DNA of 64,000 bases, taken from contig JAIPJQ010000002.1 in NCBI GenBank assembly GCA_021734065.1, forward strand, positions 2,136-66,135, in the 5' to 3' direction. A program made the translations under genes and the position numbers. The notes beneath the pieces are model-generated. The model did no database searches. It worked only from the letters and a program-made list of their open reading frames with translations, and was not told where the DNA came from. Source of the stretch: Fidelibacterota bacterium. Lineage in GTDB: Bacteria; Fidelibacterota; UBA8477. Below, piece by piece: positions 6,027-45,125 of this stretch. Within the stretch, counting starts at the first letter, position 1; each line of letters opens with the position of its first letter.

Positions 6027-7055
6027 CTACGCCGGGTCTGAAGTTGACTCAACTTCCGCATCAATTTTTATGCCTAATTCATCAAATGCCACCCAACAAC
6101 GAGTACTCAAACCATTTTCTTGGTCATACGTCATCAGGGGCGGCTCAGCATGCTTACAACGCTCCTCCGCCACGGGACAGCGGGGATGAAATTTACAGCC
6201 TTCCGGAAACTCGGTCGGTACGGGAACAACGCCCTCGATAACTGCGAGACGACTAACCTTTTTCCTGGGATTGGGTATGGATTTTAACAACCCCTGGGTG
6301 TAGGGATGTTTGGGTGATTTAAAAATCGTCCGGATGTCGCCCTCTTCCACGATTTTCCCGGCGTACATAACAATAACCCGCTTGGTCACTTCTGCTATCA
6401 CACCCAGGTCGTGGGTGATGATAATCATCGACATATTGAATTGCTTCTGCAGGCCGGCTATTAATTTCAAAATCTGCGCCTGCACCGTTACATCCAATGC
6501 CGTGGTGGGCTCATCCGCAATCAGCAGTTTTGGGTTACAGGACAATGCCATGGCGATCATGACCCGCTGACGCATACCGCCGGACAACTGGTGGGGATAC
6601 TCATCAATTCGCTGCTCCGGCGCCGGGATTCCCACCAGTTTTAACATTTCAATGGCTCGTTTTTTCGCTTCGGTTTTATCAACATGTTGATGCAACCGAA
6701 TCGCTTCCATGATTTGATCACCACAGGTAAAAACCGGATTCAGCGAGGTCATGGGCTCCTGGAAAATCATGGAAATTTCATTTCCCCGGATCCGGCGCAT
6801 TCTCTCTTCCGGCAATGCGCGCACATCTATACCATCAAAAGTGATTTCTCCGCTGACGATCTCACCCGGTGGAATGGGGATTAGCCGCATGACCGACAGA
6901 GCGGTGACTGATTTACCGCAACCTGATTCCCCTACGATTCCCAATGTTTCACCCTTATCCACATGGAATGTCACATCATCCACCGCTTTGGCCAGTCCCT
7001 CTTCGGTGGAGAAAAAGGTCCTCAGGTTTTTTACATCCAGTAATCGTTCAGCCAA
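6027..7055 (-). CDS. oppD: Oligopeptide/dipeptide ABC transporter ATP-binding subunit
   Basis: [38 protein letters not shown] and a C-terminal Cys-rich motif (GCKFHPRC...C...C). Confidence 0.93.
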
Positions 7056-7096
7056 AATGACTCCTTTATTCGGTCAGCTTCCCCGCCTCACGACGA

Positions 7097-7921
7097 TTAA
7101 GCCCTTTCTGTCTGCTTGCCCCGTTCCCGGAATGCCTGTACACCCAGGAGAATCACGATAACGGCCAGCAACCAATAGGTCGCGTGATGATATTCAGAGC
7201 CACTGAACTGGATCAGATCGTAAAAGCGTCCAATGAGCAGAGAAATTCGTCCCATCACGGCAAATCCAAAGGCCGCACCAAAGGAGATCATGAGGAACCA
7301 GATTCCCACGCGACTGATTTTCCCGAACATCCCCGTGTGTTCTTTGGAAAAGAAAAAGTAAAACAAACCGGTAAGCGTGCCAATGATGATGAGAATGGAG
7401 TTAATAGCCGTACCCCAGCCGTCGAACAGCGGCAGTGCTGATCCCCGGACCTGGGCCAGAATATTGGAATTCAGGAATCCGTACAACCGGAGCCCGGCGG
7501 CCAGACCCACTACATACGCCATGGACCAGCGCGCCAGCCAACCCAGTTTGCGGGAAAGCCGGAACAGCATGAAAATCCCAAGGATAAATGGAACCATATA
7601 GACCAGATTCATTTCATGACCTTTGTCGATTCCACCCTCCGGGAAAATTCCACTGTGGAACCAACCGAAAAAGTCGTAGATACCATACCAGGCGGCCCTT
7701 AATCCACCCATTTCTCCATCCACTTTCGGCCACAAACGCCCAAACAAATTGGGCTGGATCTGCGTCCAGAAAAATGTACTGGCCCAGTACCCGGCCGAAA
7801 CACCCACAAACAGGTGTTCAGCGGCTTTATAAAATGGATTGTCTTTATAGAGAAAACTGAAAATTGCCAGGGTCAGGAAGACCGCGAACCAGGCACCAAT
7901 AATTTCTGTTGTAAACAACAT
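7097..7921 (-). CDS. Uncharacterised polytopic membrane protein (GlmL-like cassette)
   Basis: About 7 hydrophobic segments, with motifs LTLAIFSFLYKDNPFYKAAEHLFVGVSAGY and MISFGAAFG...MGRISLLIGR. AGGAGG RBS. Confidence 0.85.
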   Translation of the reverse strand: MLFTTEIIGAWFAVFLTLAIFSFLYKDNPFYKAAEHLFVGVSAGYWASTFFWTQIQPNLFGRLWPKVDGEMGGLRAAWYGIYDFFGWFHSGIFPEGGIDKGHEMNLVYMVPFILGIFMLFRLSRKLGWLARWSMAYVVGLAAGLRLYGFLNSNILAQVRGSALPLFDGWGTAINSILIIIGTLTGLFYFFFSKEHTGMFGKISRVGIWFLMISFGAAFGFAVMGRISLLIGRFYDLIQFSGSEYHHATYWLLAVIVILLGVQAFRERGKQTERA

Positions 7922-7936
7922 GCTCGATCCTCCTGA

Positions 7937-8788
7937 TTAATATTTCTTCTGAGAGCGTTTGCGTTCCAGGAAATAGGTAATATTCCCGAAAATAATGAAC
8001 AGCACGATCACCAGATGCGCGATGGACTGGGCATCCATTCCCGAGATTCCCAACCCTGGTTTCCCCACCAACGCTTCATATTCCGCGGCGCCCGGCATGC
8101 CCGCGATAACACCCCGCAACTGGCCTGCATTTTCATAAGGAATAATTTCATTCACCTGAATGGAAGCCGTACCAGTGGTCATGGGCACACCCGTGGGATC
8201 ACTGCCATACTGGACCCATTCCACGGTACCGGGATATCCGGCGGAAAAGCTGAATATCAGGTTAAAATCCTTGAGACTATACACACCTGCCATCATGGGA
8301 ATGGAATCCACCAGTGTATTTTGATAATCCACAGTGTAGAGCTTGCGCAAATTGCTGGCAATGCCCTTCACTACCGCCTCATTCCCGGGACGGAATCCCA
8401 ACAGCACATAATCTTCACCATAAACCGTATCGTACAGCGGCGCAATGGCGTTGAGTGCGTCAATTGCCATGAACTGACCATCGGGCCAGAGACAAACCAC
8501 GTAGACCTTGATACCTTTCAAAAAGGCATGGTGCAACACCGCTTCGGCCATGGGGTGAATTTCCGGTTTTGTACTGGGGCCGTATTCAAATGACATTAAC
8601 AACCGGTCACCCGCCTGCAATGAATCAACCGCATTGAATGAGCGTTGCGTCGTCTCCGTCGCCCGAATGGGTAAGCCCAAGGGTTTGAGAAGCGGAATGA
8701 GCACCACAATAGCGATGAGCAGGAAAATGACCCGGCGATCCACTTTCCCCAGTTTAATCAGAATTGTAATGAATTTATTTTTATCCAT
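7937..8788 (-). CDS. Uncharacterised membrane protein (TM, alpha/beta domain, TM), GlmL-like cassette
   Basis: N-terminal TM after DRRVIF, a soluble domain (EYGPSTKPEIHPM...GAAEYE) and a C-terminal TM after GMDAQS. Start reassigned to ATG 8788, just after the upstream stop at 8793. Confidence 0.85.
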   Translation of the reverse strand: MDKNKFITILIKLGKVDRRVIFLLIAIVVLIPLLKPLGLPIRATETTQRSFNAVDSLQAGDRLLMSFEYGPSTKPEIHPMAEAVLHHAFLKGIKVYVVCLWPDGQFMAIDALNAIAPLYDTVYGEDYVLLGFRPGNEAVVKGIASNLRKLYTVDYQNTLVDSIPMMAGVYSLKDFNLIFSFSAGYPGTVEWVQYGSDPTGVPMTTGTASIQVNEIIPYENAGQLRGVIAGMPGAAEYEALVGKPGLGISGMDAQSIAHLVIVLFIIFGNITYFLERKRSQKKY

Positions 8789-8792
8789 GGTC

Positions 8793-9815
8793 TTATTCCC
8801 CCATGAATGATTTTTCGATTCCAAGAATGATCCGCAAACTGGTGCCGATCATTCCCAACGCAATCCCAATCATGATCGCCCTTGCACCGGCGATATTGGG
8901 CACAGTATAAATCCACTCCTGCAGTACCGGCAGAAAGAGAAATCCCGGCTTGTCCACCGGCCAACCCGTCAGCGCGCCGGCAACAGTGACAATCAGAACA
9001 CCCGCGCCGACTACCGCGAAGGTGGTCATCTTGTTTTGCCACACGATGTTGGCACCAACACCAGCCGCCAGCACGATGAGATAGGCAATGAACCAGGCTG
9101 AGATATTGGAGCCGATAGGTACGCGTCCCAGCATGATAATGATTCCGGACAATAGCAGAAGTGTTGCTTCAAAATTCCGGATACGAAATGCGCGGTATGA
9201 TGCTGAAGCCACAAAAAATGCCAGCAACGCAAACATGGTGGCCGACATGGGTGTAAACAGGTATTTGAATAACCAATTAAATACGGTTCCCTCCGCTAGT
9301 AAGTGCTCACCCCAGGATTTTTCGCGCAGTTCAACCTGAACACCGGCTGCTTTCAACTTGCTGGCATACTCCTCCGCTCCCTTGGCGCTGATGAAAATGT
9401 GGCGCACATCGTAGGTATCACTGATTTCCAGCATGGGTGTGACTTGATCAATGGTCAACTGCTCCATCTCCGCCACCACCGGCGCGACCTGTTGGATATT
9501 GGCGCTTACATCCTGAATATGGACATAATTGGCGCCCTTCCAGAAAAAGCCGGCAGTGATTGCGAAGAAAAATCCCACCACCGCCAGAATGCTGTACTGC
9601 CAATCCTTCTTCTGCCTGATGATTTTGGTCATTTGCAGTTTTAATAAATTCAGTGCACCCAAAATAATGGCAAAGCTGGCGATAATGTCAAACCACTGGG
9701 TGGCGTCATCATTCACAAACCCCTCAAAGGTCGGTGAATCCACAAACCAGCCATACAGGGTGAGTATGCCTGTGATAAAAACAATCGCGATGGGAACTTG
9801 TCGTTTCCAGAACAT
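8793..9815 (-). CDS. Uncharacterised polytopic membrane protein (GlmL-like cassette) with a soluble loop insert
   Basis: About 8 TM segments, with motifs MFALLAFFVASASYRAFRIRN and RAIMIGIALG...LRIILGIE. Start at ATG 9815 with AGGAGG RBS. Confidence 0.85.
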   Translation of the reverse strand: MFWKRQVPIAIVFITGILTLYGWFVDSPTFEGFVNDDATQWFDIIASFAIILGALNLLKLQMTKIIRQKKDWQYSILAVVGFFFAITAGFFWKGANYVHIQDVSANIQQVAPVVAEMEQLTIDQVTPMLEISDTYDVRHIFISAKGAEEYASKLKAAGVQVELREKSWGEHLLAEGTVFNWLFKYLFTPMSATMFALLAFFVASASYRAFRIRNFEATLLLLSGIIIMLGRVPIGSNISAWFIAYLIVLAAGVGANIVWQNKMTTFAVVGAGVLIVTVAGALTGWPVDKPGFLFLPVLQEWIYTVPNIAGARAIMIGIALGMIGTSLRIILGIEKSFMGE

Positions 9816-9823
9816 AACGCCTC

Positions 9824-10690
9824 CTACTCCACCCTTAGCCATTCTTTAAAATCAATGTCAATCCAGCCCAGATCGTGGACACCATTCAGAATAAAAACTA
9901 GCAAAATGGCAATCATGACGATGAATTTGCCCATGTCCTGCCCCTTCACGCTCCCCAACAAAGCCGGCTTTTGCGACAGGTAGGCAGATGCTGTTAAAAA
10001 TTCCTCACCGATCAGCGTGTAATCACAGGCCGTCACGAAAAATGGTATCTGGGAAGGTGATGCAGTCCCCGCAATCTGGATCGCACCAATGCTGTTTCCG
10101 GTCTCCGCCAGGATCAGTGACTCCGCATAAAATTTCCCCTGATAAAAACAGGCCGCCGGCTTCTCTCGCAACATGATGCCGTCCACACCGGCGGCATAGG
10201 CGAACTGCTCATCTGTGAGGTAATGAACCATATCGTCATTAAACAGGTCGGGCCGGCCCACCGACAGGTAGGATTCCTTCACAATTTCACGACCCGCTTC
10301 CATCACGATGGATCTGGACACCGGAACATTGAGATTGGTCTCATAGGTAGCGGTCATTTTGGCCACATGTCCCAGAATAATGACACCGGCGACGGTTTCC
10401 ACCTGATCCATATCCATAATACCCGGGACATACAGTACCGGCTTGCCCATTTCGGTCGCCCGACCGACGGCTTCATCAAAAGCTTTCAATCCCGGAATGA
10501 TTCTCAGATAGATTTTTTCACCACTATTGGCCCGGGCGATGTAATACAGAATGGTAATGGATAACGCCATGACGCACACGAACATGGTCAGCCGGTTACC
10601 ATTAAAATAGGGATGCCCAAACGCGTAATAGATAATGAACAGTACCGCGAAGATTCCGGCACCCATTAAGATTGCTTTTCCTGATTTCAT
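9824..10690 (-). CDS. DUF6754-like membrane protein (GlmL-like cassette)
   Basis: Motifs IPGLKAFDEAVGRATEMGKPVLY, QFAYAAG, AESLILAETG and PFFVTACDYTLIGEE match DUF6754 as recalled; needs HMM confirmation. Start at ATG 10690 with GGAGG RBS. Confidence 0.75.
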   Translation of the reverse strand: MKSGKAILMGAGIFAVLFIIYYAFGHPYFNGNRLTMFVCVMALSITILYYIARANSGEKIYLRIIPGLKAFDEAVGRATEMGKPVLYVPGIMDMDQVETVAGVIILGHVAKMTATYETNLNVPVSRSIVMEAGREIVKESYLSVGRPDLFNDDMVHYLTDEQFAYAAGVDGIMLREKPAACFYQGKFYAESLILAETGNSIGAIQIAGTASPSQIPFFVTACDYTLIGEEFLTASAYLSQKPALLGSVKGQDMGKFIVMIAILLVFILNGVHDLGWIDIDFKEWLRVE

Positions 10691-10765
10691 ACACCCTCCC
10701 ATTGGTCAGATCAGTTGATCCGGCAACAACAACCTCAATACCTGAAGCTGCTGCGGGTTAAATCA

Positions 10766-11122
10766 TTACCGAACTTGCGTTCCGGTGCTGGATGATTGAC
10801 GCTCCGGAGTTTTCGGAGTGCCCGTATCCTGGATCTTTTTTTTTTCTTCTTCAAGGCGCTCAATCTCTGCTACCAGCACTTCCACATTGTGGTAGTCTTC
10901 CAGCAGCTCGGTGAGCTCGTAGTAGGTTTCCGCCCGCACAAAGGCGGTGAGAATGGGGCCGAAAAAAACCATGGTCTGGCTGCCGATAAACGCAAGCGGT
11001 TTCATCATTTCCAATGCCAAAACGGCTGGTACGGTCATCCCCCGCATCACGATTTTCTCGGCGATCCGGGTTAAGATAGCCGGATCCGGCGCTTTTAATG
11101 GTTTTTCGTTAAATCCCAGCAT
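10766..11122 (-). CDS. Small conserved hypothetical protein (GlmL-like cassette)
   Basis: 118 aa, motif KIV..GMTVPAVLALE..KPL.FIGSQ...F..P. Lies 11 nt downstream of the preceding gene. Confidence 0.75.
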   Translation of the reverse strand: MLGFNEKPLKAPDPAILTRIAEKIVMRGMTVPAVLALEMMKPLAFIGSQTMVFFGPILTAFVRAETYYELTELLEDYHNVEVLVAEIERLEEEKKKIQDTGTPKTPERQSSSTGTQVR

Positions 11123-11133
11123 GTTGAAATTTT

Positions 11134-12261
11134 TCAGTCGGTTTCCACCATCTCCAAGTTAGCCCGTGGAACCGTTTTTACATCCCCATTTTCAAATTCA
11201 ATAACCGCCACACGCACCATGGTCTCCGATTCCATTTTCTGCAATTCCGGAGGCAACTCCTTCACATGCCCCAATTTTCCAAAATAGGGCGCCCGAATAA
11301 CGCGCACCAGCGAATCTTCCCCCATTCCGGCGGACATGTCATGCTGCTTTTCCGATTCGGCGGTTTCAGCCGGGAGTGTAATGACAATTTCCGGCCGAAT
11401 CACACCCGCCCGAATTTGCGTAGCGCCATTGAGTGAGGCAAAATGCCCATCATGAGATTTTAGCAGCTCAAAGGTGCGTCGCGCCATATTCACTTTCCCA
11501 AAACCCTCGGTGACCACCATTGTCGTGGCAAGATCTTCCGACCCGGTGATTGCCACACCCAATGTGTAGCCCAGGATTTCCTTCAGCTGATTATAGTCAA
11601 ATCCACCTGTAACGATGCCCGCTATACCAAGACTGACGGCCTTTCGGTAAGCCTCCAGGGAAACATAATTTCCACCCACAAGGATCTTTCCTTTGTACTC
11701 CGGCTTAATGTCATCCGGCTTCAACTCCTCTTTCCGGTCTGAAACCAGCAACTTCAGTTCACCGCGCGTCTCACCACCAATCCCAAAAATCCCCTGGATC
11801 AGGGCTGCTTTGGATTCAATAATAACACCCTCTTCCGGAAGCACTTCACGGACGACACCTGAAATGTACGCGTCCACCTCGACCGGGATGGGAGCCTCAC
11901 GAATTACCACCTGTCCGGTAGTACTGGAAATTTGCTCAATTGTACCATCGGTGGGCGAATCTACTTTGGACTTGAACAAGCCGAATATGCCGGCACTCTC
12001 AGCCAGCATCTCGCCCTGTTTGATCGTATCCCCGGCGGATTTTTTCATCATTTCAGGCACTTCGGACGCTTCAACGTTGAGCAAATTGGCAACATTGACC
12101 ATCTGCACATTTCCAGGCAGATTGGTGGAACACACAATGCTTTCCGGTTTGACCTCCACACCTTTCTCCACCGTAACCTTCCCCTTCAGGGGCAGGATTC
12201 GCGGCTTTCTTATCGTGGTGGCGTGTAAAACTTTTAATCCGGGCGTATACGCGTGTGCCAT
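11134..12261 (-). CDS. Uncharacterised soluble protein with barrel-sandwich-hybrid-like, swivel-like and C-terminal KOW/SH3-like segments
   Basis: GDTIKQGEMLAE...SPTDGTI (BSH-like), ILVGG...AGIVTGG (swivel-like) and VRVIRAPYFGKLGHV...VPRANLE (KOW-like). TAATG overlap with the glmL-like gene. Confidence 0.75.
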   Translation of the reverse strand: MAHAYTPGLKVLHATTIRKPRILPLKGKVTVEKGVEVKPESIVCSTNLPGNVQMVNVANLLNVEASEVPEMMKKSAGDTIKQGEMLAESAGIFGLFKSKVDSPTDGTIEQISSTTGQVVIREAPIPVEVDAYISGVVREVLPEEGVIIESKAALIQGIFGIGGETRGELKLLVSDRKEELKPDDIKPEYKGKILVGGNYVSLEAYRKAVSLGIAGIVTGGFDYNQLKEILGYTLGVAITGSEDLATTMVVTEGFGKVNMARRTFELLKSHDGHFASLNGATQIRAGVIRPEIVITLPAETAESEKQHDMSAGMGEDSLVRVIRAPYFGKLGHVKELPPELQKMESETMVRVAVIEFENGDVKTVPRANLEMVETD

Positions 12262-14105
12262 TATTCGCCCTCACTTTCCGGATATTCGTTCATGGCTGTG
12301 GACCACTGATTCAATTTCTTGATACGCTCATCATGATTTTCAGGTAGTGAAAAAGGTTGACGACCGCGGGTGTCGAAGATCAGCCCCACCACACCGCCGT
12401 ACAAGTCCATTTCAATAGGTGTTCCTTTCCCTTTACCAAGATCAAGGTGTTTGTCCGGGATTAATTCCGCTTTGGTGATCTCATGGGGCGCTTCAATGAC
12501 TTCCAGAGTGCCGGGTAAATACTCTTTCTCCACCGTTGCACCATCCGGCAGAGTGAGTTTGGCCACCAGCGCCGGTTTTCCGGCCTTCATCTTCCCCACC
12601 GGTGCGATGCAGGTTCCCAATCGAATCAAACAATCTTTCTCGAACACTTCCAGCGCTGCCTTTTCGGCACTCTCACGAATGTCTGGTTTGTCCACATTGG
12701 CCAGTACGCCAAGCTGAGGCATCATGAAAATGGAATCCACCGCCAGTTGGGTAATTCCCTCCGGCAAGAACGCGTCAATCATCATTTTGGCGGATTGAGA
12801 CCGTCTGGGTGCGTGGGACAAGACACCGCCGGAACCCACCAACAAGTCCAGCTCCATCATATCCACCAATGTTTCACCCGAGCCGGACTGTTCGAACGCA
12901 TCTGAGATGGTGCGCTCCGTCTGGATACCTTTCAGGCTCACAGCAAAGGATTTATGCTGAATGAAGCTGAGTCGTAATGCCTCCCGGGCCAGCGCCTGCT
13001 CAATTTTCAATTCCTCCAGCGACTGCGGGATGGTGGTGGGCCGAATCATCTTATTGGCGATTCGATTGGCCAATTCCTTCTCGTCAATATCAAAGGACAC
13101 CCAGCGAATCACATTCTCAATTGTTGCTTCAGCCAGAACATTGGTGATGGAATAACTCATCCCCAGATTGGCTGAAACGGTGCGGTTAAATGTCTTTTTA
13201 AATACGGAAAAAACATCCGTGGTAGCGCCGCCGATATCCACGCCCACAACAGAGATATTATCCCGTTTGGCGATCATCTCAATTAACGCACCCACCGCTC
13301 CGGGCGTGGGCATGATTGGAGCATCGGTCCAGGTCATGAGTTTTTTATACCCCGGTGCCTGGGCCATCACATGCTCCATAAACAGGTCGTGGATTTTATC
13401 ACGGGAAGGGGTGAGATTTTCACGCTCCAGAACCGGACGAATATTTTCCACCACCGTGAGATCGGTGATGTCTCCCAGTGTTTCACGGATATTGTCCTGG
13501 GCTTTGTTGTTCCCGGCATAGATCACCGGCAGTTTATAACTGCTTCCCAGACGCGGTTTGGGTTTGGCTGCTTTCAGAATTTCAGCCAATTCCACCACGT
13601 GGCTGATGGTACCACCGTCGATACCACCTGACAGTAAAATCATATCCGGACGCAATTGACGGATGCGCTCAATCTTCTGGTGCGGAAGGCGGCCATCATT
13701 GGACGCCAGCACATCCATCACAATGGACCCGGCCCCCAAAGCAGCCCGCTGAGCACTCTCTCCGGTCATGGATTTCACCACACCGGCGACCATCATTTGC
13801 AATCCACCACCGGCAGACGACGTTGAGACATAGACGTCCACACCTTTGGGTTTACCTGCGCTGTCCTTCTCCGGTCTCAGAATGGTATCACCGTCCAGAA
13901 TCAAGCGCCCGGAAAGCTCTTCCACCTCACGTACGGCATTCAGTACACCCCGGGTTACATCTTCAAAAGGAGCCTCCACGGTAGTCGGAGCCTCACCGCG
14001 AGCAGTGAGACGGTATCCTTCGTCGGTCATTTCGATTAGGATGGCTTTGGTTGTGGTGGAGCCACAATCCGTTGCCAGTATTGATTTTAGTGTTATCTCA
14101 GACAT
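12261..14105 (-). CDS. GlmL/MutL (glutamate mutase L)-like ASKHA-fold ATPase
   Basis: Phosphate-1 TDCGSTTTK, SSAGGGL, phosphate-2 VDIGGATTDVFS, MPTPGAV, RTVSANLGM and adenosine motif GSGGVLSH. Confidence 0.85.
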   Translation of the reverse strand: MSEITLKSILATDCGSTTTKAILIEMTDEGYRLTARGEAPTTVEAPFEDVTRGVLNAVREVEELSGRLILDGDTILRPEKDSAGKPKGVDVYVSTSSAGGGLQMMVAGVVKSMTGESAQRAALGAGSIVMDVLASNDGRLPHQKIERIRQLRPDMILLSGGIDGGTISHVVELAEILKAAKPKPRLGSSYKLPVIYAGNNKAQDNIRETLGDITDLTVVENIRPVLERENLTPSRDKIHDLFMEHVMAQAPGYKKLMTWTDAPIMPTPGAVGALIEMIAKRDNISVVGVDIGGATTDVFSVFKKTFNRTVSANLGMSYSITNVLAEATIENVIRWVSFDIDEKELANRIANKMIRPTTIPQSLEELKIEQALAREALRLSFIQHKSFAVSLKGIQTERTISDAFEQSGSGETLVDMMELDLLVGSGGVLSHAPRRSQSAKMMIDAFLPEGITQLAVDSIFMMPQLGVLANVDKPDIRESAEKAALEVFEKDCLIRLGTCIAPVGKMKAGKPALVAKLTLPDGATVEKEYLPGTLEVIEAPHEITKAELIPDKHLDLGKGKGTPIEMDLYGGVVGLIFDTRGRQPFSLPENHDERIKKLNQWSTAMNEYPESEGE

Positions 14106-14132
14106 AAAACATGAACCACCATTTCAAACACT

Positions 14133-15167
14133 TTATTGCTTCAACCGCGGGTCTAGTGCATCACGCAATCCTTCACCCACCAGATTATAGACCGTTACCG
14201 TAATAAAAATCGCCAAACCCGGAAATGTGGTGAGCCACCATCCGCTGGGCAACATGTCCCGGGCACTGGATAACAACGACCCCCAGGTAGCCTGCTCCGG
14301 TGGCGCTCCAAATCCCAAAAAGCTCAGTCCCGACTCGATTAATATCGCCGCTGCCACACCAAATGTTGCCGTTACCAGCACCGGTGTGAGAGTGTTGGGA
14401 AGGACATGCCGAAAAATCGTCCGGAAATCGCTAAATCCCAAAGCCTTTGCAGCGGTGACATAGTCCTCGTTCTTCACCTTGAGGAATTCACCACGGGTAA
14501 ACCGGGCCACGCCGGTCCAGCCGGTCAGTCCTAAAATAATCATAATATTCACGATGGATTGCGTCTGCACCACCGCCACGATGGTAATGATGAGAAACAT
14601 GCGCGGGAAGGTGATCATCACCTCAATTAAGCGTTGGATGATGACATCCACCCAGCCGCCATAAAAACCGGCCAGCGCCCCCAGTATCATGCCAATTATG
14701 ACATAGATTGTTACGGCCACAAATCCCACCAATAGCGAAACCCGTGAGCCGTGAATCAGCTGTGATAACACATCCCGACCCAGTTCATCTGTGCCACACA
14801 GGTGAGTGGAATTGGGTGGTGACAATTTTCGCTTCAAATCATAGTCGTTGGGTCCGAAGGGAATTACCGGCCAGACTGCCCAGTCCCCTTCTTCAAATTT
14901 ATTCGTCAACAACTTCCACTGCTGTGTTTTGAAATCATCCTGCCACTGCATCCCAAGCCATTCCACACCATACTCACGCAGGACCGGCGCGTAATAGTCA
15001 CCTTTATACTTCATAATCAAAGGTTTGTCGTTGGCCAGGAAGTCAGCGAAGATGAATATAAACAGGAGCACATAGATCACATGCAGACTGTATAGCGCCA
15101 GTTTGTTGCGGCTGAATTGACGCTTGACGATATCCAGGTAGGAACGGGATTTCTTCTGCTGTTTCAT
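14133..15167 (-). CDS. oppC: Peptide ABC transporter permease
   Basis: GTDELGRDV...GSRVSL, EAA loop DYVTAAKALG and ESGLSFLGFG. Confidence 0.93.
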   Translation of the reverse strand: MKQQKKSRSYLDIVKRQFSRNKLALYSLHVIYVLLFIFIFADFLANDKPLIMKYKGDYYAPVLREYGVEWLGMQWQDDFKTQQWKLLTNKFEEGDWAVWPVIPFGPNDYDLKRKLSPPNSTHLCGTDELGRDVLSQLIHGSRVSLLVGFVAVTIYVIIGMILGALAGFYGGWVDVIIQRLIEVMITFPRMFLIITIVAVVQTQSIVNIMIILGLTGWTGVARFTRGEFLKVKNEDYVTAAKALGFSDFRTIFRHVLPNTLTPVLVTATFGVAAAILIESGLSFLGFGAPPEQATWGSLLSSARDMLPSGWWLTTFPGLAIFITVTVYNLVGEGLRDALDPRLKQ

Positions 15168-16552
15168 TACCGGTTCCCCTCGAATGTGATGCGGGGATCC
15201 ACCAACGCATACAGGATATCAGATATTAAAATCCCTGCCAGGGTCAGAATTGCACTGAGAGTGGATACAGCCATAATGATGGGATAATCGCGATACAGGA
15301 CGGCATTGAATGCCAGCTGACCGATACCGGGAATGGAGAAAATGCTTTCAATAATGATGGACCCGGAAATAGCCAATGGCAACAGATTGGCCAGCATGGT
15401 GATGATGGGAATCAATGAATTACGCAGCGCGTGTTTATACACCACAATCTTTTCCGATAAGCCTTTCGCCCGGGCGGTACGAATATAGTCCTGACGGATC
15501 ACCTCCAGCATGGAACCCCGCATATACCGGGATAATGCTGAAAAACTACCGTATGTCCAAATGATCAGGGGCAGGATAATGTGGTGCAACATATCCAGCA
15601 GATATCCTCCGCGCCCCATGTGCTCTGAACCAACACTGTGGAGCCCGGAGACAGGAAACCAATCCAGAAAGTCGCCACCGCCAAAGAAGACGATGGCCAT
15701 GGTGGCTACCCAAAAGTTGGGGAGGGAGTATAAAATAAACAGAATCACAGTGGTGACCTTATCCCCCAGTGTGTACTGGTGTGTGGCGGAGTAAATTCCC
15801 AGCGGAATGGCTACCAGATAAGCAATAATGAACGAGGTGAGTGTGAAAATCAGCGAGACCGGCACAGTCTCTTTGAAATGCTCCCAGACCGGCCGGTTAT
15901 CCTTGATGGAATTTCCGAAATCAAGCCGGATCATGCGCCCCAGCCACCGTGGGTATTGGGCGTCCGTGAGTATCATGGTGATTTTTTTCAGCGTGGAAAA
16001 TTGGTAGTTGGATTCATCGCCCGGCTGGAATACACCACTGGAATCCGTCTCACCATAATACCACTTGTTCACATAACTTCTGGAGGCTGCCAGTGTCATT
16101 TCCGGTGTGATGGAAAGTTTCTGCTTCAGGGTCAACACTTCCAGAATCGCACGCTGTTCCACCTCCGTCAGATCCTGGTTGATGAGTTGGTCAACCAAAA
16201 ACGGTACCGCCACATCATCAGCCTGTTTCAGCGGCTCCAGCGCATCGTCCCATTCTCTGGAATTCTGGTCCGGATTGGTGACGAGAAACTGGCGCACATC
16301 ATCCCAATCCGATTCATACATGAATACCTTGAAATTCAAGAGAACCGGTTTGTCCAGTCCATAGATTTCGCGAGTCTGTTCCACCACCTGCTTGGCCAGA
16401 TTCTGGTCGGATGCCAACCCGGTCTGCTGGCTGCCCATCTTGAATGCCGTAGGATCGCCGGGCGCCATTTTAATGATGATAAAAATGATAATAGAGATGC
16501 CAAAAATGGTGGGGAAAATGAGCAGAATGCGTTTGAGGATGTAATTAATCAA
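15167..16552 (-). CDS. oppB: Peptide ABC transporter permease with a large periplasmic insertion
   Basis: YILKRILL...PGDP, DFGNS, DYIRTARAKGL, HALRNSLIP and RDYPIIM. 461 aa, longer than a typical OppB. TTG start. Confidence 0.92.
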   Translation of the reverse strand: MINYILKRILLIFPTIFGISIIIFIIIKMAPGDPTAFKMGSQQTGLASDQNLAKQVVEQTREIYGLDKPVLLNFKVFMYESDWDDVRQFLVTNPDQNSREWDDALEPLKQADDVAVPFLVDQLINQDLTEVEQRAILEVLTLKQKLSITPEMTLAASRSYVNKWYYGETDSSGVFQPGDESNYQFSTLKKITMILTDAQYPRWLGRMIRLDFGNSIKDNRPVWEHFKETVPVSLIFTLTSFIIAYLVAIPLGIYSATHQYTLGDKVTTVILFILYSLPNFWVATMAIVFFGGGDFLDWFPVSGLHSVGSEHMGRGGYLLDMLHHIILPLIIWTYGSFSALSRYMRGSMLEVIRQDYIRTARAKGLSEKIVVYKHALRNSLIPIITMLANLLPLAISGSIIIESIFSIPGIGQLAFNAVLYRDYPIIMAVSTLSAILTLAGILISDILYALVDPRITFEGNR

Positions 16553-16612
16553 GAGGGCATCCTCTCAAGCTGAAAAATTTTGATGTCATTGGCCGTTCGC
16601 GAAAAATCTTCA

Positions 16613-18466
16613 TCATGGCGCCATCCCCACTTGTGCTTCATTCGAACTCCGCCACCAGCTCACATTATTATACCCGGGACGTATGGGAATCCATTTTACA
16701 TCCTTAAATGCCCTATCATAAGCTCCGGGATCCCGCTGGTAGAACATGAAGGTGTAAGGCTGTTCCTCGTGGAGAATTTCCTGAAAGCGCCGATACATGC
16801 TGTCCCGCTTTGCTGCATTCATCTCATACCGGGCCGCCATGATCAACGAATCGGCTTCCGCATCCCTGAAGCCGATATAATTTGAACCCCGGTTCCCAAT
16901 GTTTTCCGAATGCCAGATCTGATAAGGATCAGACTGGAGCCCGCCAATCCAAAGCAGCATCACACAATCAAACTGCCGGTCACGGAGATTTTCAACATAA
17001 ACCGACCATTCCAACTGGCGGATTCCCACGACAATACCGATTTTCTGTAAATCTTCCTTCATCATGAGCGCCAGTAGCTTGGAGCCGCGGGAGCCGGCTG
17101 ATACGGAAAATATGAATTTGAAGGGAACACCGTCCTTATCACGAATACCGTCTCCGTCATGGTCAGTCCAACCGGCTTCGTCCAGTAATTCAACTGCCCG
17201 CTCAGGATCATAGGGCCAACGGGGAATTGTATCATTGTACTGCGGACTGAAGGGATAGAAGGGACCGATGGTGGGAATACCCAGATCATAGCCGATGTAC
17301 TTGTTGTAGGCATCCCGGTCGATGAGCATGGTCATGGCCTGTCGTACCCGCTTATCCCGGAAATAGGGCCGGTCATTATTCCACCCCACGTAACTGTAGG
17401 CCGGCACCACAAAGGTGACCTTCTGGAATTTCTGTAGAAAATCGGGTGTATTCGTCTGCTCGAAATACTGGATCGCCCGCATCCGTGGCAGAAAATCCAC
17501 ATCTCCTGCTTTCAATGCCGTGAGCATGGCAGTTGCATCACTGATGGACTTCACGATAATGGTATCCAGATATCCTGCTGCTTCGGCAAATCCGGGAATA
17601 TGGGGTTTCTCCGTGTTCCAGTAGTTTTTATTGCGGACCATCATCATGTACTCACCGGTAATCCAACGGTGAAATTTGTAGGCACCGCTTCCGATCAACT
17701 TCTCCGCATCCATTCCCGCCGGCCGATTCAACGGATTGGTATTGAAGGTGTCTGCCCACTCTTTGATGTCTGATTCATTGGTAAATACTTGCGGGTTTTT
17801 CAGGTCTTCGATACCGAACCGGTCCAGCATCCCGTCAGGGTCCCACTGGTGCTTGGGTAGTATCGCAAATCCGCCCATAAACTCAAGGTTCAGGAAGTAG
17901 GTGTCAGATGTGCGGATGATGAAGGTGTACTTATCCGGGGTTCTGGCTTCCACCACATTTCTGTAGTAGGCACGTAACGGCGCGTCATCAACATAAGGAT
18001 TCATAATCGCCTTCAGGGAAAAAAGAACATCTTCAGACGTAAGCGGTTTCCCATCATGCCAGGTGATATTCTCGTGGAGATGGAAGGTGTATGTTTTTTG
18101 GTCTTCGGAAATCTCGAAACTTTTTGCCAAAATGGGCCGATCATATTCCCAGGTGGTGTAATCGTAATTTACCAGCGGTTCATAGATATAATCTAAAAAT
18201 CGCTTGGCTGCTGCTGAAGTGGATGTGTAATAATTCAAATTTTCCGGTTCAGCAGACTCCGCCTTGATCAACGTCCCTCCCCGGCGTGGCGTTTCATCCG
18301 TTGGTGAGGAATTGAAGATTTTCACATCACCGGTGAGATCGACCTTCAAACCACCAGCTTGCCCTAAGATTTCATCATAATTACCGGGAGATTCCGTATG
18401 GATGAGATTGGTGAATAAAATCAGCAGTAACAGAACAGCGAGTTGTATCAGGATTGAGCGCTTCAT
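16613..18466 (-). CDS. oppA: Peptide ABC transporter substrate-binding protein (SBP family 5)
   Basis: GGTL, YEPLV, WHDGKPLTSEDVLFS, GSGAYKF, KRVRQAM and LDEAGW.D.DGDG. N-terminal hydrophobic anchor without a lipobox Cys. Confidence 0.93.
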   Translation of the reverse strand: MKRSILIQLAVLLLLILFTNLIHTESPGNYDEILGQAGGLKVDLTGDVKIFNSSPTDETPRRGGTLIKAESAEPENLNYYTSTSAAAKRFLDYIYEPLVNYDYTTWEYDRPILAKSFEISEDQKTYTFHLHENITWHDGKPLTSEDVLFSLKAIMNPYVDDAPLRAYYRNVVEARTPDKYTFIIRTSDTYFLNLEFMGGFAILPKHQWDPDGMLDRFGIEDLKNPQVFTNESDIKEWADTFNTNPLNRPAGMDAEKLIGSGAYKFHRWITGEYMMMVRNKNYWNTEKPHIPGFAEAAGYLDTIIVKSISDATAMLTALKAGDVDFLPRMRAIQYFEQTNTPDFLQKFQKVTFVVPAYSYVGWNNDRPYFRDKRVRQAMTMLIDRDAYNKYIGYDLGIPTIGPFYPFSPQYNDTIPRWPYDPERAVELLDEAGWTDHDGDGIRDKDGVPFKFIFSVSAGSRGSKLLALMMKEDLQKIGIVVGIRQLEWSVYVENLRDRQFDCVMLLWIGGLQSDPYQIWHSENIGNRGSNYIGFRDAEADSLIMAARYEMNAAKRDSMYRRFQEILHEEQPYTFMFYQRDPGAYDRAFKDVKWIPIRPGYNNVSWWRSSNEAQVGMAP

Positions 18467-41213: not shown

Positions 41214-44200
41214 ATGCGCGTTTTCATTTCCATGCGATTTTTAACACTTTTCCTCATCAGTACCTGCGTTTTGGCATTACAAATCGAACAAATCTCTCAG
41301 GGCGAATCCGATCTGCTGGTGTCACTGGAGATTAAAGCATCGACCTATGAGACTGTCTTCACAGTGGGTGATCGTCACCTGAACTTACCGGCAGTACCAG
41401 ACGCGGATTGGACCTATTTTCCCGGCCGGAATACGCTACGACCGCTCATAACCATTCCCATTGTACTGCCCCCCGACGGCCGACTGCCCACGCTGCAGGT
41501 GCTGGACCAGACAGTCACCCAATTATCCTTTGAATTTCCCGAATTTTCACCACAGGAAGCAGAACTTTCCGGCGTCTCCCGTGCGGATGGCTCCCTGGAT
41601 CCCAATGCAGCGGCTCAGGTGGTAAGGACCGGGCGTAGTGGACAACGCTGGTTCGGCGCGGTGCTCATTCAGCCACTCACGCTGGAGGGGCAACAAATCA
41701 CCGCCCTGTCCCTGCGTCTGGATTTTGGTCAGACACCGCAACTTCAGGTTGATTCCGGACCGGTGAAGATCCCGGCATTGAATGCCGAAATGGCAAAAGG
41801 CTGGACGATTCCCCGGGGAAAAAAACTGTCCCGGCGTGTTGACAACCCTCCGGAGGGCTCCTGGTACAAAATCCCCATCCGTGAAAATGGAGTTTATGCC
41901 ATCACGCGCACCAGCCTGTCCGGATCGCTGCCCCAGATCGCGCCGGAGAAATGGCGGCTCTTTGCCCCCTACTCGCAAGGGAGAACATTACCACAGAACC
42001 TGGAAGTTGATGGCGTCATACCACCCAATCTGATTGAGATCAGTTATCAGGGTATGGGACTTGGTGATGGTGAACTAAACGAGGGTGATCAATTGCGCTT
42101 TTTCGCCCGGGGACCCAATGGCGACCTGCATGGCGACCATGTGACCAATCCTTTTTTTAATGAAGTGTACTATTGGCTGCTCATTCCCTCCGATCCCAAC
42201 GCGGAGGGCAAATCCATTCCAACTCTCACATCCCTGGATGGCGATACCGACACCATCATCAATACCTACAAAGAGGTGTTCTATCACGAAAAAGAGCAGA
42301 AAAACCCTCTGCGGTCCGGCCTTACCTGGTTCGGTGAACAATTCGTGGGAACCAGCACAACCCTTACACTAAAGTTTGACGCCTGGGACCCTGTTACCAC
42401 GGGTGATTTGACGGTTTCAGCCCGCTTTTACCCCAGCCTGGAAAGCAGCTTAGGTTCTGATAATCATTCGGTTTCCATTCTGGCAAATCAGACAACCCTG
42501 CGCCAGTACAATACCACCGGCACAATGCCGTTTAATGTGTTCGGAACGGCCAATGCCGGGGTGCTGAACCAGGGTGAAAATCAAATTCGATTACATTATC
42601 AGTCCAATCGCAGTCAGAGCGAAATCTACCTGGACTCACTACGCCTGAGTTACGAGCGCCCTTTAGCGCCGAAATCCGGCGAAATCGTCATGGCTCATCT
42701 GCATTTGGACGCAGGTCTGAATCGGGTGGTGTTCACCAATCTGAATAGCAACGATCATTTTTGGGATGTGAGTGATCCGGCTGCTCCGGCTCAATTGACC
42801 ATTCAGGCGAATCAATTTCAGTTGAACGGACCAGGCGCCTTACATCTGCTGGGATTCAGCGATGATGATGTTCGAACCGCCACAACCATAGAAGTGTCAG
42901 ATTTTACGTATCAGTTGCGGCGCCCGGAAATTGATGGTGAATATATCGTCATTGCACCTAAGATTTTCAGTCAGGAAGCCGAACGAATCAAGGATCTCCG
43001 GGAAAACCGGGTGCTTCCAGAGGATCGAATGACGGTGAAGATCGCCTATATAGAGGATATTTATCGGGAATTCGCAGCCGGCGCCCAGGATCCCATCGCC
43101 ATTCGGAATTTTATCAGTTATGCCTATTGGAATTGGCAAACCCAGCCTGGCTATGTTTTCATTTTAGGAGATGCTGATTATGATTACCGAAATTATACCG
43201 GCCAGTCCAAAATTTTAGTTCCCGTCTGGGAAACGGACGGAACCAGCAGCGGCAATCTGAGTGACATTGCAACACGCGCTACAGATGATTTTTACGTCTA
43301 TGTAGTCGGTGGACCCGGTGACCGTGCACCTGACCTGGCCATTGGGCGATTACCGGCGCGAGATTTAACTTCACTCACCATCATGGTGGATAAAATTGAC
43401 GCCTATCAGACCAATCCGGTGCCCGGGGTCTGGCGAAATACGGCGATTCTGGTCGGTGACGATCCCTTACGTCCGTCTGTGGGTGAAACAATGCATATTG
43501 GACAATGCGAGGACCTTTACAATCGTCTGCCGGCTTCTTTCATCACCAAAAAAATCTACCTTACCGAATACCCGGATGTACAGGATCCCACATCTGCTTA
43601 TGTACGCAAACCGGATGCCCGGGAAGATTTGCTACAGAAGATTTATGATGGCGCTGCCATTATTACCTATATGGGTCATGGCAGCCCCACAGTCTGGGCG
43701 CAGGAACGGGTATTCACCCAAAGCGATTTACCCCGCCTGGACACGGGGATGAAATTACCCTTCTGGGTAGCTGGTACCTGTGACTGGGGCTATTTCGATG
43801 ATGTGAACAGTAATTGCGTGCCTGAAACGATTCTCAATATGCGGGACGAAGGCGGTGTTGGCATTCTCACAGCAACCCGTAAAGTGGGTTCTTTTTCCAA
43901 TGCCACACTGATGAAATCGGTCTATGAAGGTTTGTTTCAATATGGTGATCGCAGCACATCCAATACATTGGGCGATGCGGTTCGTCTTGGAAAATCAAGC
44001 AGTTTTAATACAATGAATGATGAGAAGTATGTACTCTTTACAGACCCGGCACTGAAGCTGGTCAGCCCAAGGGACAAGGGCGTCATGGAGCAGGTTACAC
44101 CATCTCAACCCCGCGCTCTGGGGAAACTAGCCTTTTCCGGAGATGTCCAATCGGACGCGCCATTGGATGGCCAGGCTGTGGTGACCGCGTATGACTCCAA

Positions 44201-45125
44201 ACGGAATGTGACGCGTCATTATTCCGGGTATGTCCCCAACAGCTCCCAGGGGTATTATGAAGGCGATATCTCCTACATCCTGCCGGGTCAGCGCATTTTC
44301 CGCGGGCTTATAAGCGTTACTTCTGGTGCATTCAGCGGTGAATTCACCATTCCCAAAGACATTCGCTACGTGGGCCGTTCCGGAATTTTGAATGTTCAAT
44401 ATTGGGATACGCAGGGGCATTCAGGTGTCGCTTTTGTGGATACGCTGAGTTTTACAGGCAGTGATTCCACCAGCACTGACGAAACCGGGCCTGATATCCA
44501 GTTCTACTACTTTGGACAGCCGTTGATGAATGGATATCAGGTGCTGGGAAGTGACAATCTCACGATTGAAATCTACGATGAAAATGGCATCAACCTCACC
44601 GGTGTTGCCGGACACGGCATTTCGCTGGCCATTGATGAAGATTGGGTCAATGCGGTGGATGTAACCGAACTCTATGAATATGATGTGGATCGCACCGACC
44701 TGGGCAGACTCGATGTTCTGCTTGCCAATATGGAGGAGGGGACCCACACGGTGAGTGTGAAAGCCTGGGATAATTTCAACAATCCAAATGTGAGCACCAT
44801 TTCCCTCAACTTTACCAGTTCCACTGAATTCCAGATCGTGGATATTTACAATTATCCCAACCCCATGACCTCGGAGACAATTTTCTGGTTCCGGTTAACC
44901 GATGCAGCCGATGTGAAAATTAAAATATTTTCCCTGGGAGGACGCATGGTACGCACCATTTCACTGGGGAGCGTGGGAAAAGGCTATCATATGGGGCACT
45001 GGGATGGCCGGGATGAGTTTGGTCAGTTACTGGCGAATGGTGTCTATCTGTATGTGGTGGAGGCAAAGTATGACCTGGCTGCTGATCCGCGACAGGCGAT
45101 TCAGAAATTGGTGATTTCTCGATGA
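41214..45125 (+). CDS. porU: Type IX secretion system sortase PorU-like protein (peptidase C25) with C-terminal sorting/FlgD-Ig domain
   Basis: WYKIPI.ENGVY, IYREF..G..DP.AIRNF, LGDADYD, IGRLP, catalytic YMGHG and GTCDWGYFD, KAWDNFNN, and CTD YNYPNP...WDGRD..G..LANGVYLY. Confidence 0.85.
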   Translation: MRVFISMRFLTLFLISTCVLALQIEQISQGESDLLVSLEIKASTYETVFTVGDRHLNLPAVPDADWTYFPGRNTLRPLITIPIVLPPDGRLPTLQVLDQTVTQLSFEFPEFSPQEAELSGVSRADGSLDPNAAAQVVRTGRSGQRWFGAVLIQPLTLEGQQITALSLRLDFGQTPQLQVDSGPVKIPALNAEMAKGWTIPRGKKLSRRVDNPPEGSWYKIPIRENGVYAITRTSLSGSLPQIAPEKWRLFAPYSQGRTLPQNLEVDGVIPPNLIEISYQGMGLGDGELNEGDQLRFFARGPNGDLHGDHVTNPFFNEVYYWLLIPSDPNAEGKSIPTLTSLDGDTDTIINTYKEVFYHEKEQKNPLRSGLTWFGEQFVGTSTTLTLKFDAWDPVTTGDLTVSARFYPSLESSLGSDNHSVSILANQTTLRQYNTTGTMPFNVFGTANAGVLNQGENQIRLHYQSNRSQSEIYLDSLRLSYERPLAPKSGEIVMAHLHLDAGLNRVVFTNLNSNDHFWDVSDPAAPAQLTIQANQFQLNGPGALHLLGFSDDDVRTATTIEVSDFTYQLRRPEIDGEYIVIAPKIFSQEAERIKDLRENRVLPEDRMTVKIAYIEDIYREFAAGAQDPIAIRNFISYAYWNWQTQPGYVFILGDADYDYRNYTGQSKILVPVWETDGTSSGNLSDIATRATDDFYVYVVGGPGDRAPDLAIGRLPARDLTSLTIMVDKIDAYQTNPVPGVWRNTAILVGDDPLRPSVGETMHIGQCEDLYNRLPASFITKKIYLTEYPDVQDPTSAYVRKPDAREDLLQKIYDGAAIITYMGHGSPTVWAQERVFTQSDLPRLDTGMKLPFWVAGTCDWGYFDDVNSNCVPETILNMRDEGGVGILTATRKVGSFSNATLMKSVYEGLFQYGDRSTSNTLGDAVRLGKSSSFNTMNDEKYVLFTDPALKLVSPRDKGVMEQVTPSQPRALGKLAFSGDVQSDAPLDGQAVVTAYDSKRNVTRHYSGYVPNSSQGYYEGDISYILPGQRIFRGLISVTSGAFSGEFTIPKDIRYVGRSGILNVQYWDTQGHSGVAFVDTLSFTGSDSTSTDETGPDIQFYYFGQPLMNGYQVLGSDNLTIEIYDENGINLTGVAGHGISLAIDEDWVNAVDVTELYEYDVDRTDLGRLDVLLANMEEGTHTVSVKAWDNFNNPNVSTISLNFTSSTEFQIVDIYNYPNPMTSETIFWFRLTDAADVKIKIFSLGGRMVRTISLGSVGKGYHMGHWDGRDEFGQLLANGVYLYVVEAKYDLAADPRQAIQKLVISR

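Follow-up and report, generated by a model that had tools for sequence, protein, structure and literature searches.

A conserved seven-gene cassette joining a GlmL-like predicted ATPase to four membrane proteins in Fidelibacterota, a possible importer of peptide- or amino-acid-type solutes

We analyzed a 64,000-nucleotide stretch of DNA from a Fidelibacterota bacterium (GenBank assembly GCA_021734065.1, contig JAIPJQ010000002.1, positions 2,136 to 66,135; hereafter the window) and describe a cassette of seven genes, g1 to g7, on its minus strand. The cassette is real. Its genes, closely spaced and conserved as a unit, fall into two modules, an ATPase module (g1-g2-g3) and a membrane quartet (g4-g7). 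They are linked, they co-occur, they are fused in some genomes and they are expanded in copy number in others. Of the families tested by sequence, the cassette falls into none, except that g1 has the broad PF13941/ASKHA label. Its best explanation, which we put forward tentatively, is a so far undescribed importer that uses ATP to take up peptide- or amino-acid-type solutes. More tentatively still, it may represent a novel class of primary active importers, with an actin/Hsp70-fold ATPase instead of an ATP-binding cassette (ABC) or P-type one and with exchangeable four-subunit modules for peptides and amino-acid amides. Its users would then be degraders of protein from many phyla, both abundant marine ones and anaerobic ones.

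Positions 6027 to 18466 contain 11 open reading frames (ORFs), all of them on the minus strand; in sequence, they are oppA, oppB, oppC, g1 to g7, oppD. The g1 gene (12261..14105), encoding a 614-aa ASKHA-fold protein that is a predicted ATPase, shares a 1-nt TAATG overlap with g2 (11134..12261), which encodes a soluble partner of 375 aa. The small g3 gene (10766..11122; 118 aa) follows after 11 nt and, after a further 75 nt, the DUF6754 membrane protein gene g4 (9824..10690; PF20539, 2.5e-116). The genes g5 (8793..9815), g6 (7937..8788) and g7 (7097..7921) are spaced by 8, 4 and 15 nt, the starts of g4, g5 and g6 having been shifted to ATG codons behind purine-rich sites at 10690, 9815 and 8788. 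The gene order, strand and TAATG overlap given in the initial annotation are thus borne out by the ORFs. Its statement that gaps are mostly about 40 nt or less, with one of 75 nt, is right for most junctions and overlooks a second long gap, the 60 nt between oppA and oppB; oppB and oppC overlap by 1 nt, and 27 nt separate oppC from g1 and 41 nt separate g7 from oppD. Neither did we find the internal terminator that it had reported as lacking: none of the 26 terminator-like sites listed (19.5 in shuffles) lies in an intergenic gap from oppA to oppD, and the predicted folding of five stretches at the junctions is on a par with that of shuffled sequence (z -1.1 to +0.9). The GC content is 0.50-0.52 in cassette and opp genes alike.

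A scan of GTDB contigs returned at least 583 relatives of g1. The best 80 loci, which were examined, came from Marinimicrobia, Zixibacteria, Ignavibacteria, Eisenbacteria, WOR-3, Calditrichota, Sumerlaeota, Planctomycetota, Bacillota and others. The locus scan set of 82 (these and two unrelated loci), in which many contigs end early, contained g2 in 70 loci, g4 in 54, g5 in 53, g3 in 49, g6 in 48 and g7 in 47. Among 151 genomes of the organism's own phylum, g2 and DUF6754 were each found in 98 and both in 97, and among 201 genomes of a Bacillota-type phylum each was found in 16 and both in 15, with a MutL-family gene of any kind in 83; related genomes are not independent, and the co-occurrences do not represent 112 separate events. 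That the seven genes are kept together, as had been proposed, agrees with these counts. Both modules are missing from whole families of the own phylum (0/27 in f8), and both are retained in genomes of 0.8-1.1 Mb and in one genome where they are far apart (G066).

The two modules vary in number and arrangement. In the 98 own-phylum genomes, the system occurs once and is highly conserved. It is expanded in anaerobic Bacillota-type genomes, where the quartet mostly forms a four-gene operon of its own and DUF6754 reaches 11 copies (G323). In many loci outside Marinimicrobia, one g1-g2 pair adjoins two or three tandem quartets. The quartet genes co-diverge (Spearman 0.68-0.78 over 99 quartets), with g6 the most variable subunit (median identity 34%) and g4 the most conserved (46%); among the G323 paralogues, g6 is 30-71% identical and g4 41-89%. 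Group II energy-coupling factor (ECF) transporters have an energizing module that is encoded separately from a number of divergent membrane modules. The cassette resembles them in that the g1-g2 module is encoded apart from divergent quartets, although the parts are unrelated, and none of g1 to g7 matched a P-loop ABC ATPase, EcfT, S-component or ABC permease family over cut-off. Unlike an ECF module, the quartet has four subunits with soluble domains on both sides, and the cassette's ATPase module multiplies too. Quartets outnumber g1-g2 pairs in many genomes and the reverse is found in others; one genome (G381) has seven long g1-type genes and two quartets, which counts against a single shared motor. 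A degenerate quartet was seen in G295 (locus L217, 6511-9269), a genome with no g2 match.

The g1 protein matches PF13941 over residues 9-473 (5.9e-125), and databases name its relatives "glutamate mutase L". It shares its Pfam family and nucleotide-binding motifs with GlmL/MutL and Or-4 (PF13941, NF040745, NF040744, TIGR01319), which would be in keeping with its being a genuine GlmL/Or-4 protein that reactivates a B12 mutase. We consider that assignment exceedingly improbable. The protein is about 150 aa longer than GlmL, with a C-terminal extension of about 140 aa past the MutL domain, and is under the NCBIfam cut-offs for GlmL (NF040745, 228.6 vs 475), Or-4 (210 vs 600) and TIGR01319 (167 vs 204). 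It is 29-30% identical to three annotated glmL products sited between glmS and glmE, the gene order of true glmL records being glmS-glmL-glmE, whereas g1 is paired or fused with g2, is linked to a membrane quartet and has no adjacent glmS or glmE. In a midpoint-rooted FastTree phylogeny of 84 rows, made without bootstrapping and with one mis-trimmed row (L118) disregarded, 47 long g1-type rows formed one clade with support 100, apart from GlmL. A glutamate mutase E match over cut-off occurred in one of 50 cassette genomes, which are part of the 80 loci and mostly incomplete, and in which other B12 mutases were not searched for. No such match was found in the organism's own genome (82% complete), whose two B12-binding matches are both on contigs other than that of the cassette. 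The sequence comparisons thus place g1 outside GlmL, in a separate clade of long GlmL-like proteins, and the initial annotation's view that the cassette is independent of glutamate mutase stands. The database label "glutamate mutase L" is no indication of B12-dependent glutamate fermentation in these genomes.

Several B12-related genes were noted along the way. Locus L081 of the organism's own genome (contig C9, 151-1869) has a gene for a corrinoid-binding protein beside what we take to be a uroporphyrinogen-decarboxylase-like gene, a pair that suggests a methyltransferase system. In G047 (L085, 1468-3405), a fused gene resembling glutamate mutase S and E has neighbors that are presumably aspartate/glutamate racemase-like and asparagine-synthase-like. 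Three loci (L160, 7985-11692; L161, 1739-5383; L186, 1907-6028) contain B12-binding, mutase-like and MutL genes, fused or split, adjoining opine dehydrogenase, C26 peptidase and Opp system genes, and possibly belong to an undescribed B12 mutase pathway.

The nucleotide-binding motifs of g1 are kept: DCGSTTTK, DIGGATTD and GSGG, which we take to be the phosphate-1, phosphate-2 and adenosine motifs. The VDIGGATTD motif had been read as resembling that of hydantoinases or oxoprolinases. Annotated GlmL proteins bear the same motif, which is therefore not specific to hydantoinases, and the match of g1 to PF01968 (residues 269-314, 46 residues; E 1.3e-4) scores 21.8 against a cut-off of 22.9 bits. 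Compared with hydantoinase/oxoprolinase A, g1 has the ASKHA fold and a similar phosphate-2 motif, but it has membrane partners instead of a B subunit, and no hydantoinase B-subunit family was matched by g2 to g7. The cassette could still encode a membrane-bound enzyme, in which g1-g2, working in the manner of hydantoinase/oxoprolinase, would serve as an ATP-dependent amide or lactam hydrolase, kinase or ligase and the quartet would present, flip or modify a lipid or surface substrate. Besides the weak Hydantoinase_A match, this would suit the six polar residues of g6 that are invariant in 66 sequences (E76, D154, Q223, E238, H258 and N269), the frequency of cdsA as a neighbor in the own phylum (see below), and the divergent g1-g2 paralogues of L162-L174, which lie beside amino-acid catabolic genes with no quartet nearby. 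The sharing of the motif with GlmL, the lack of a hydantoinase-B-like partner in the cassette and the presence of up to 11 quartet copies per genome, which would suit uptake more than one modification step, make such an enzyme rather unlikely in our judgment. Around the L162-L174 paralogues, we saw histidine-utilization-like genes, D-amino-acid enzymes, a radical SAM gene and ABC exporters, and a third gene of 275-330 aa often accompanies them.

The g2 protein consists of a barrel-sandwich hybrid, a central domain and a KOW-like end. Matches at E<=1 among 65 g2 members were to RnfC_N (50), Biotin_lipoyl (42) and KOW (28), and g1 and g2 form a single ORF in three loci (L103, L118 and L119). The best PDB profile match of g2 is a weak one to RraA (E 0.067), presumably a swiveling-type fold. 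No PEP-utilizer or DDR swiveling profile was matched by g2, in a test whose positive control also failed. In 15 loci (including L031, L044, L052, L074, L076 and L077), a gene of 258 aa lies between g1 and g2, and Tol-Pal-type genes follow. The g3 gene accompanies g1-g2, adjoining the pair in Bacillota-type loci. A 155-aa membrane gene precedes g3-g1 in L072 (73-540), in 18 loci in all and in several loci of the Bacillota-type phylum; this gene is possibly an eighth component that the window has lost.

A chaperone-like role for g1-g2 has also to be weighed, in which the pair, like a diol or glycerol dehydratase reactivase, would swap or assemble the subunits of a quartet whose own job would be ion translocation, export or envelope assembly. 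MutL/GlmL has been described as a reactivating chaperone of glutamate mutase, with reference to work on diol dehydratase (PMC4682846), and the reactivases as an ATPase with swiveling domains, with the hypothesis that they act by subunit swap (PMC7674605). The cassette would resemble DdrAB/GdrAB in having an Hsp70-like ATPase that acts on a protein complex (PMC7674605), and perhaps in a swiveling domain in g2, to which the RraA match weakly points; the Tol-Pal-type genes after g2 in many loci are also in keeping with this role. It differs in having no dehydratase partner, and g1 matched the DdrA profile with a probability of 8%. The lack of a swiveling profile match in g2, in the test whose control failed too, and of any evident redox-cofactor motif in the conservation lines of the alignments leads us to rate this remodeler as improbable.

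The quartet has about 16 helices in total, and g5, g6 and g7, like g3, had no match over the Pfam and NCBIfam thresholds. The g4 protein has a 200-aa soluble domain that is predicted to be cytoplasmic (K+R bias 5.5 vs 1.3/0.4), and relatives of g4 bear N-terminal Fn3 or beta-propeller domains. The integral membrane protein g5 has six predicted helices in the family core and eight in the window's protein, and it matched no PDB sequence at E<=10. An insertion of about 80 aa in own-phylum g5 (9306-9542 in the window) forms a loop that is predicted to face outward and has no Pfam match. In g6, two membrane helices flank a domain that was modeled by AF2 with a pLDDT of 95.4 and is predicted to be a single Rossmann-like lobe facing outward; fold searches with this domain returned no specific solved relative. 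The g7 protein has about five predicted helices. Four of the 31 long g7 relatives in the database are g6-g7 fusions, three of which have an added linker helix, consistent with the predicted topology.

Outward-facing domains would also be found in a transmembrane receptor or gated channel, in which they would sense a ligand while g1-g2 reset or read out the complex. None of the subunits matched an output domain of the DNA-binding, kinase or cyclase type, and four subunits with about 16 helices would be more than a simple receptor requires. We regard this alternative as unlikely.

If the cassette is an importer, the quartet would bind a peptide- or amino-acid-type solute outside the cell, and the cytoplasmic g1-g2, with or without g3, would hydrolyze ATP and drive the quartet. 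The cargo would dock at the Rossmann-like lobe that g6, the most variable subunit, is predicted to display outside. The g1-g2 pair would dock on the conserved soluble domain that g4, the most conserved subunit, is predicted to display inside, with g5 and g7 as the putative membrane core. The ASKHA nucleotide cycle could then move this core, or could phosphorylate or hydrolyze the arriving cargo. The Opp genes, long-established neighbors in this phylum, would not belong to the machine.

The neighboring genes lend modest support to a peptide- or amide-type cargo. Peptidase- or amidohydrolase-type genes (C26, M20, M14 and TldD/E peptidases, amidohydrolases, an amidase and a nitrilase-type gene) made up 26 of the 174 neighbor ORFs at 36 quartet loci, 84 of these ORFs having been scanned after selection by eye, and 9 of 137 in 20 hand-picked control windows of the same genomes. 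The enrichment has a p of 0.015 per gene but of 0.28 per locus (15/36 vs 6/20), and several of the loci are orthologous. A lysine-catabolic-type aminotransferase and an aldehyde dehydrogenase occur in 16 of the 40 loci surveyed in the own phylum, about as the opp genes do (15/40), and glycine cleavage genes adjoin 6 of the 80 cross-phylum loci.

The opp genes flanking the cassette in the window encode a solute-binding protein of the OppA type (16613..18466; PF00496, 2.4e-84), permeases of the OppB (15167..16552; PF00528, 9.4e-38) and OppC (14133..15167; PF00528, PF12911) types and, behind g7, an OppD-type ABC ATPase (6027..7055; PF00005 and PF08352) with no adjacent oppF. All of them are optional neighbors. 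An orphan gene for an OppF-like ABC ATPase, on contig C12 of the same genome (76415-77434) directly upstream of nucleoside-kinase-like and mreBCD-type genes, may be the missing partner of this oppD. With cdsA 11 nt upstream of oppA and an ABC-2 pair 35 nt after oppD, the cassette is part of a larger gene run. It had been described as inside a peptide ABC operon; it is indeed nested between oppABC and oppD, and the run extends past the opp genes on both sides. In the own phylum, the cassette is embedded in a housekeeping gene run of the order TPR, pyrD, rlpA, cdsA, [oppABC], cassette, [oppD], aldehyde dehydrogenase, class III aminotransferase and rsmI-type gene (names beyond Pfam are our assumption), with cdsA the commonest neighbor (33/40 loci).

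The own-phylum survey of opp genes covered 40 loci, picked to cover families and overlapping in part with the cross-phylum set. The oppABC genes adjoin the cassette in 15 of 35 complete own-phylum loci, leaving 20 without them (the contig of L107 ends too early to judge), and in 7 of 42 near-complete cross-phylum loci; no opp genes were found in any of the 54 Bacillota-type loci. The full oppABC-cassette-oppD nesting occurs in six families of the own phylum (f1, f6, f7, f11, f13 and f16), and a seventh (f2) has oppABC alone. In five own-phylum loci (L102, L116, L119, L127 and L129), oppD alone is kept behind g7. In these and in L059, oppD lies right behind g7, mostly diverged to 40-46%, and oppABC is gone from the locus. 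Given nesting in several families and its loss in others, the link is old but optional and has repeatedly been lost. The nesting and the retention of oppD would be expected of an accessory module of this Opp transporter. This interpretation is largely refuted by the absence of adjacent oppABC in 20/35 own-phylum and 35/42 cross-phylum loci and of opp genes in the Bacillota-type loci, and by the oppC-type genes that the oppD-only genomes hold elsewhere; we judge it very improbable. The cassette and the Opp/Dpp peptide importers are gene neighbors in part of one phylum and would probably have a similar class of cargo, but g1 to g7 have no sequence relation to them and mostly occur without them. 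The initial annotation had inferred an independent ATP-driven membrane complex tied to peptide uptake. Such a complex is still the best reading, while the tie to this peptide ABC system is weakened, recurrence beside opp genes being confined to part of the own phylum and absent from the Bacillota-type loci. The nesting is thus a hint about metabolism and not a requirement.

Elsewhere in the window (41214-45125), a 1303-aa secreted protein is encoded that has the look of what we take to be a C25-family (PorU-like) peptidase.

We know of no solute importer powered by an ASKHA-fold ATPase, and no published description of the cassette was found in the part of the literature that was searched. Even under the alternative explanations, these genes would encode an undescribed seven-protein membrane machine. 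If the cassette is an importer, its conservation in 98 of 151 own-phylum genomes, including streamlined ones of 0.8-1.1 Mb, together with its expansion in Bacillota-type genomes, suggests that it may be one of the main ways in which uncultured bacteria take up organic nitrogen.

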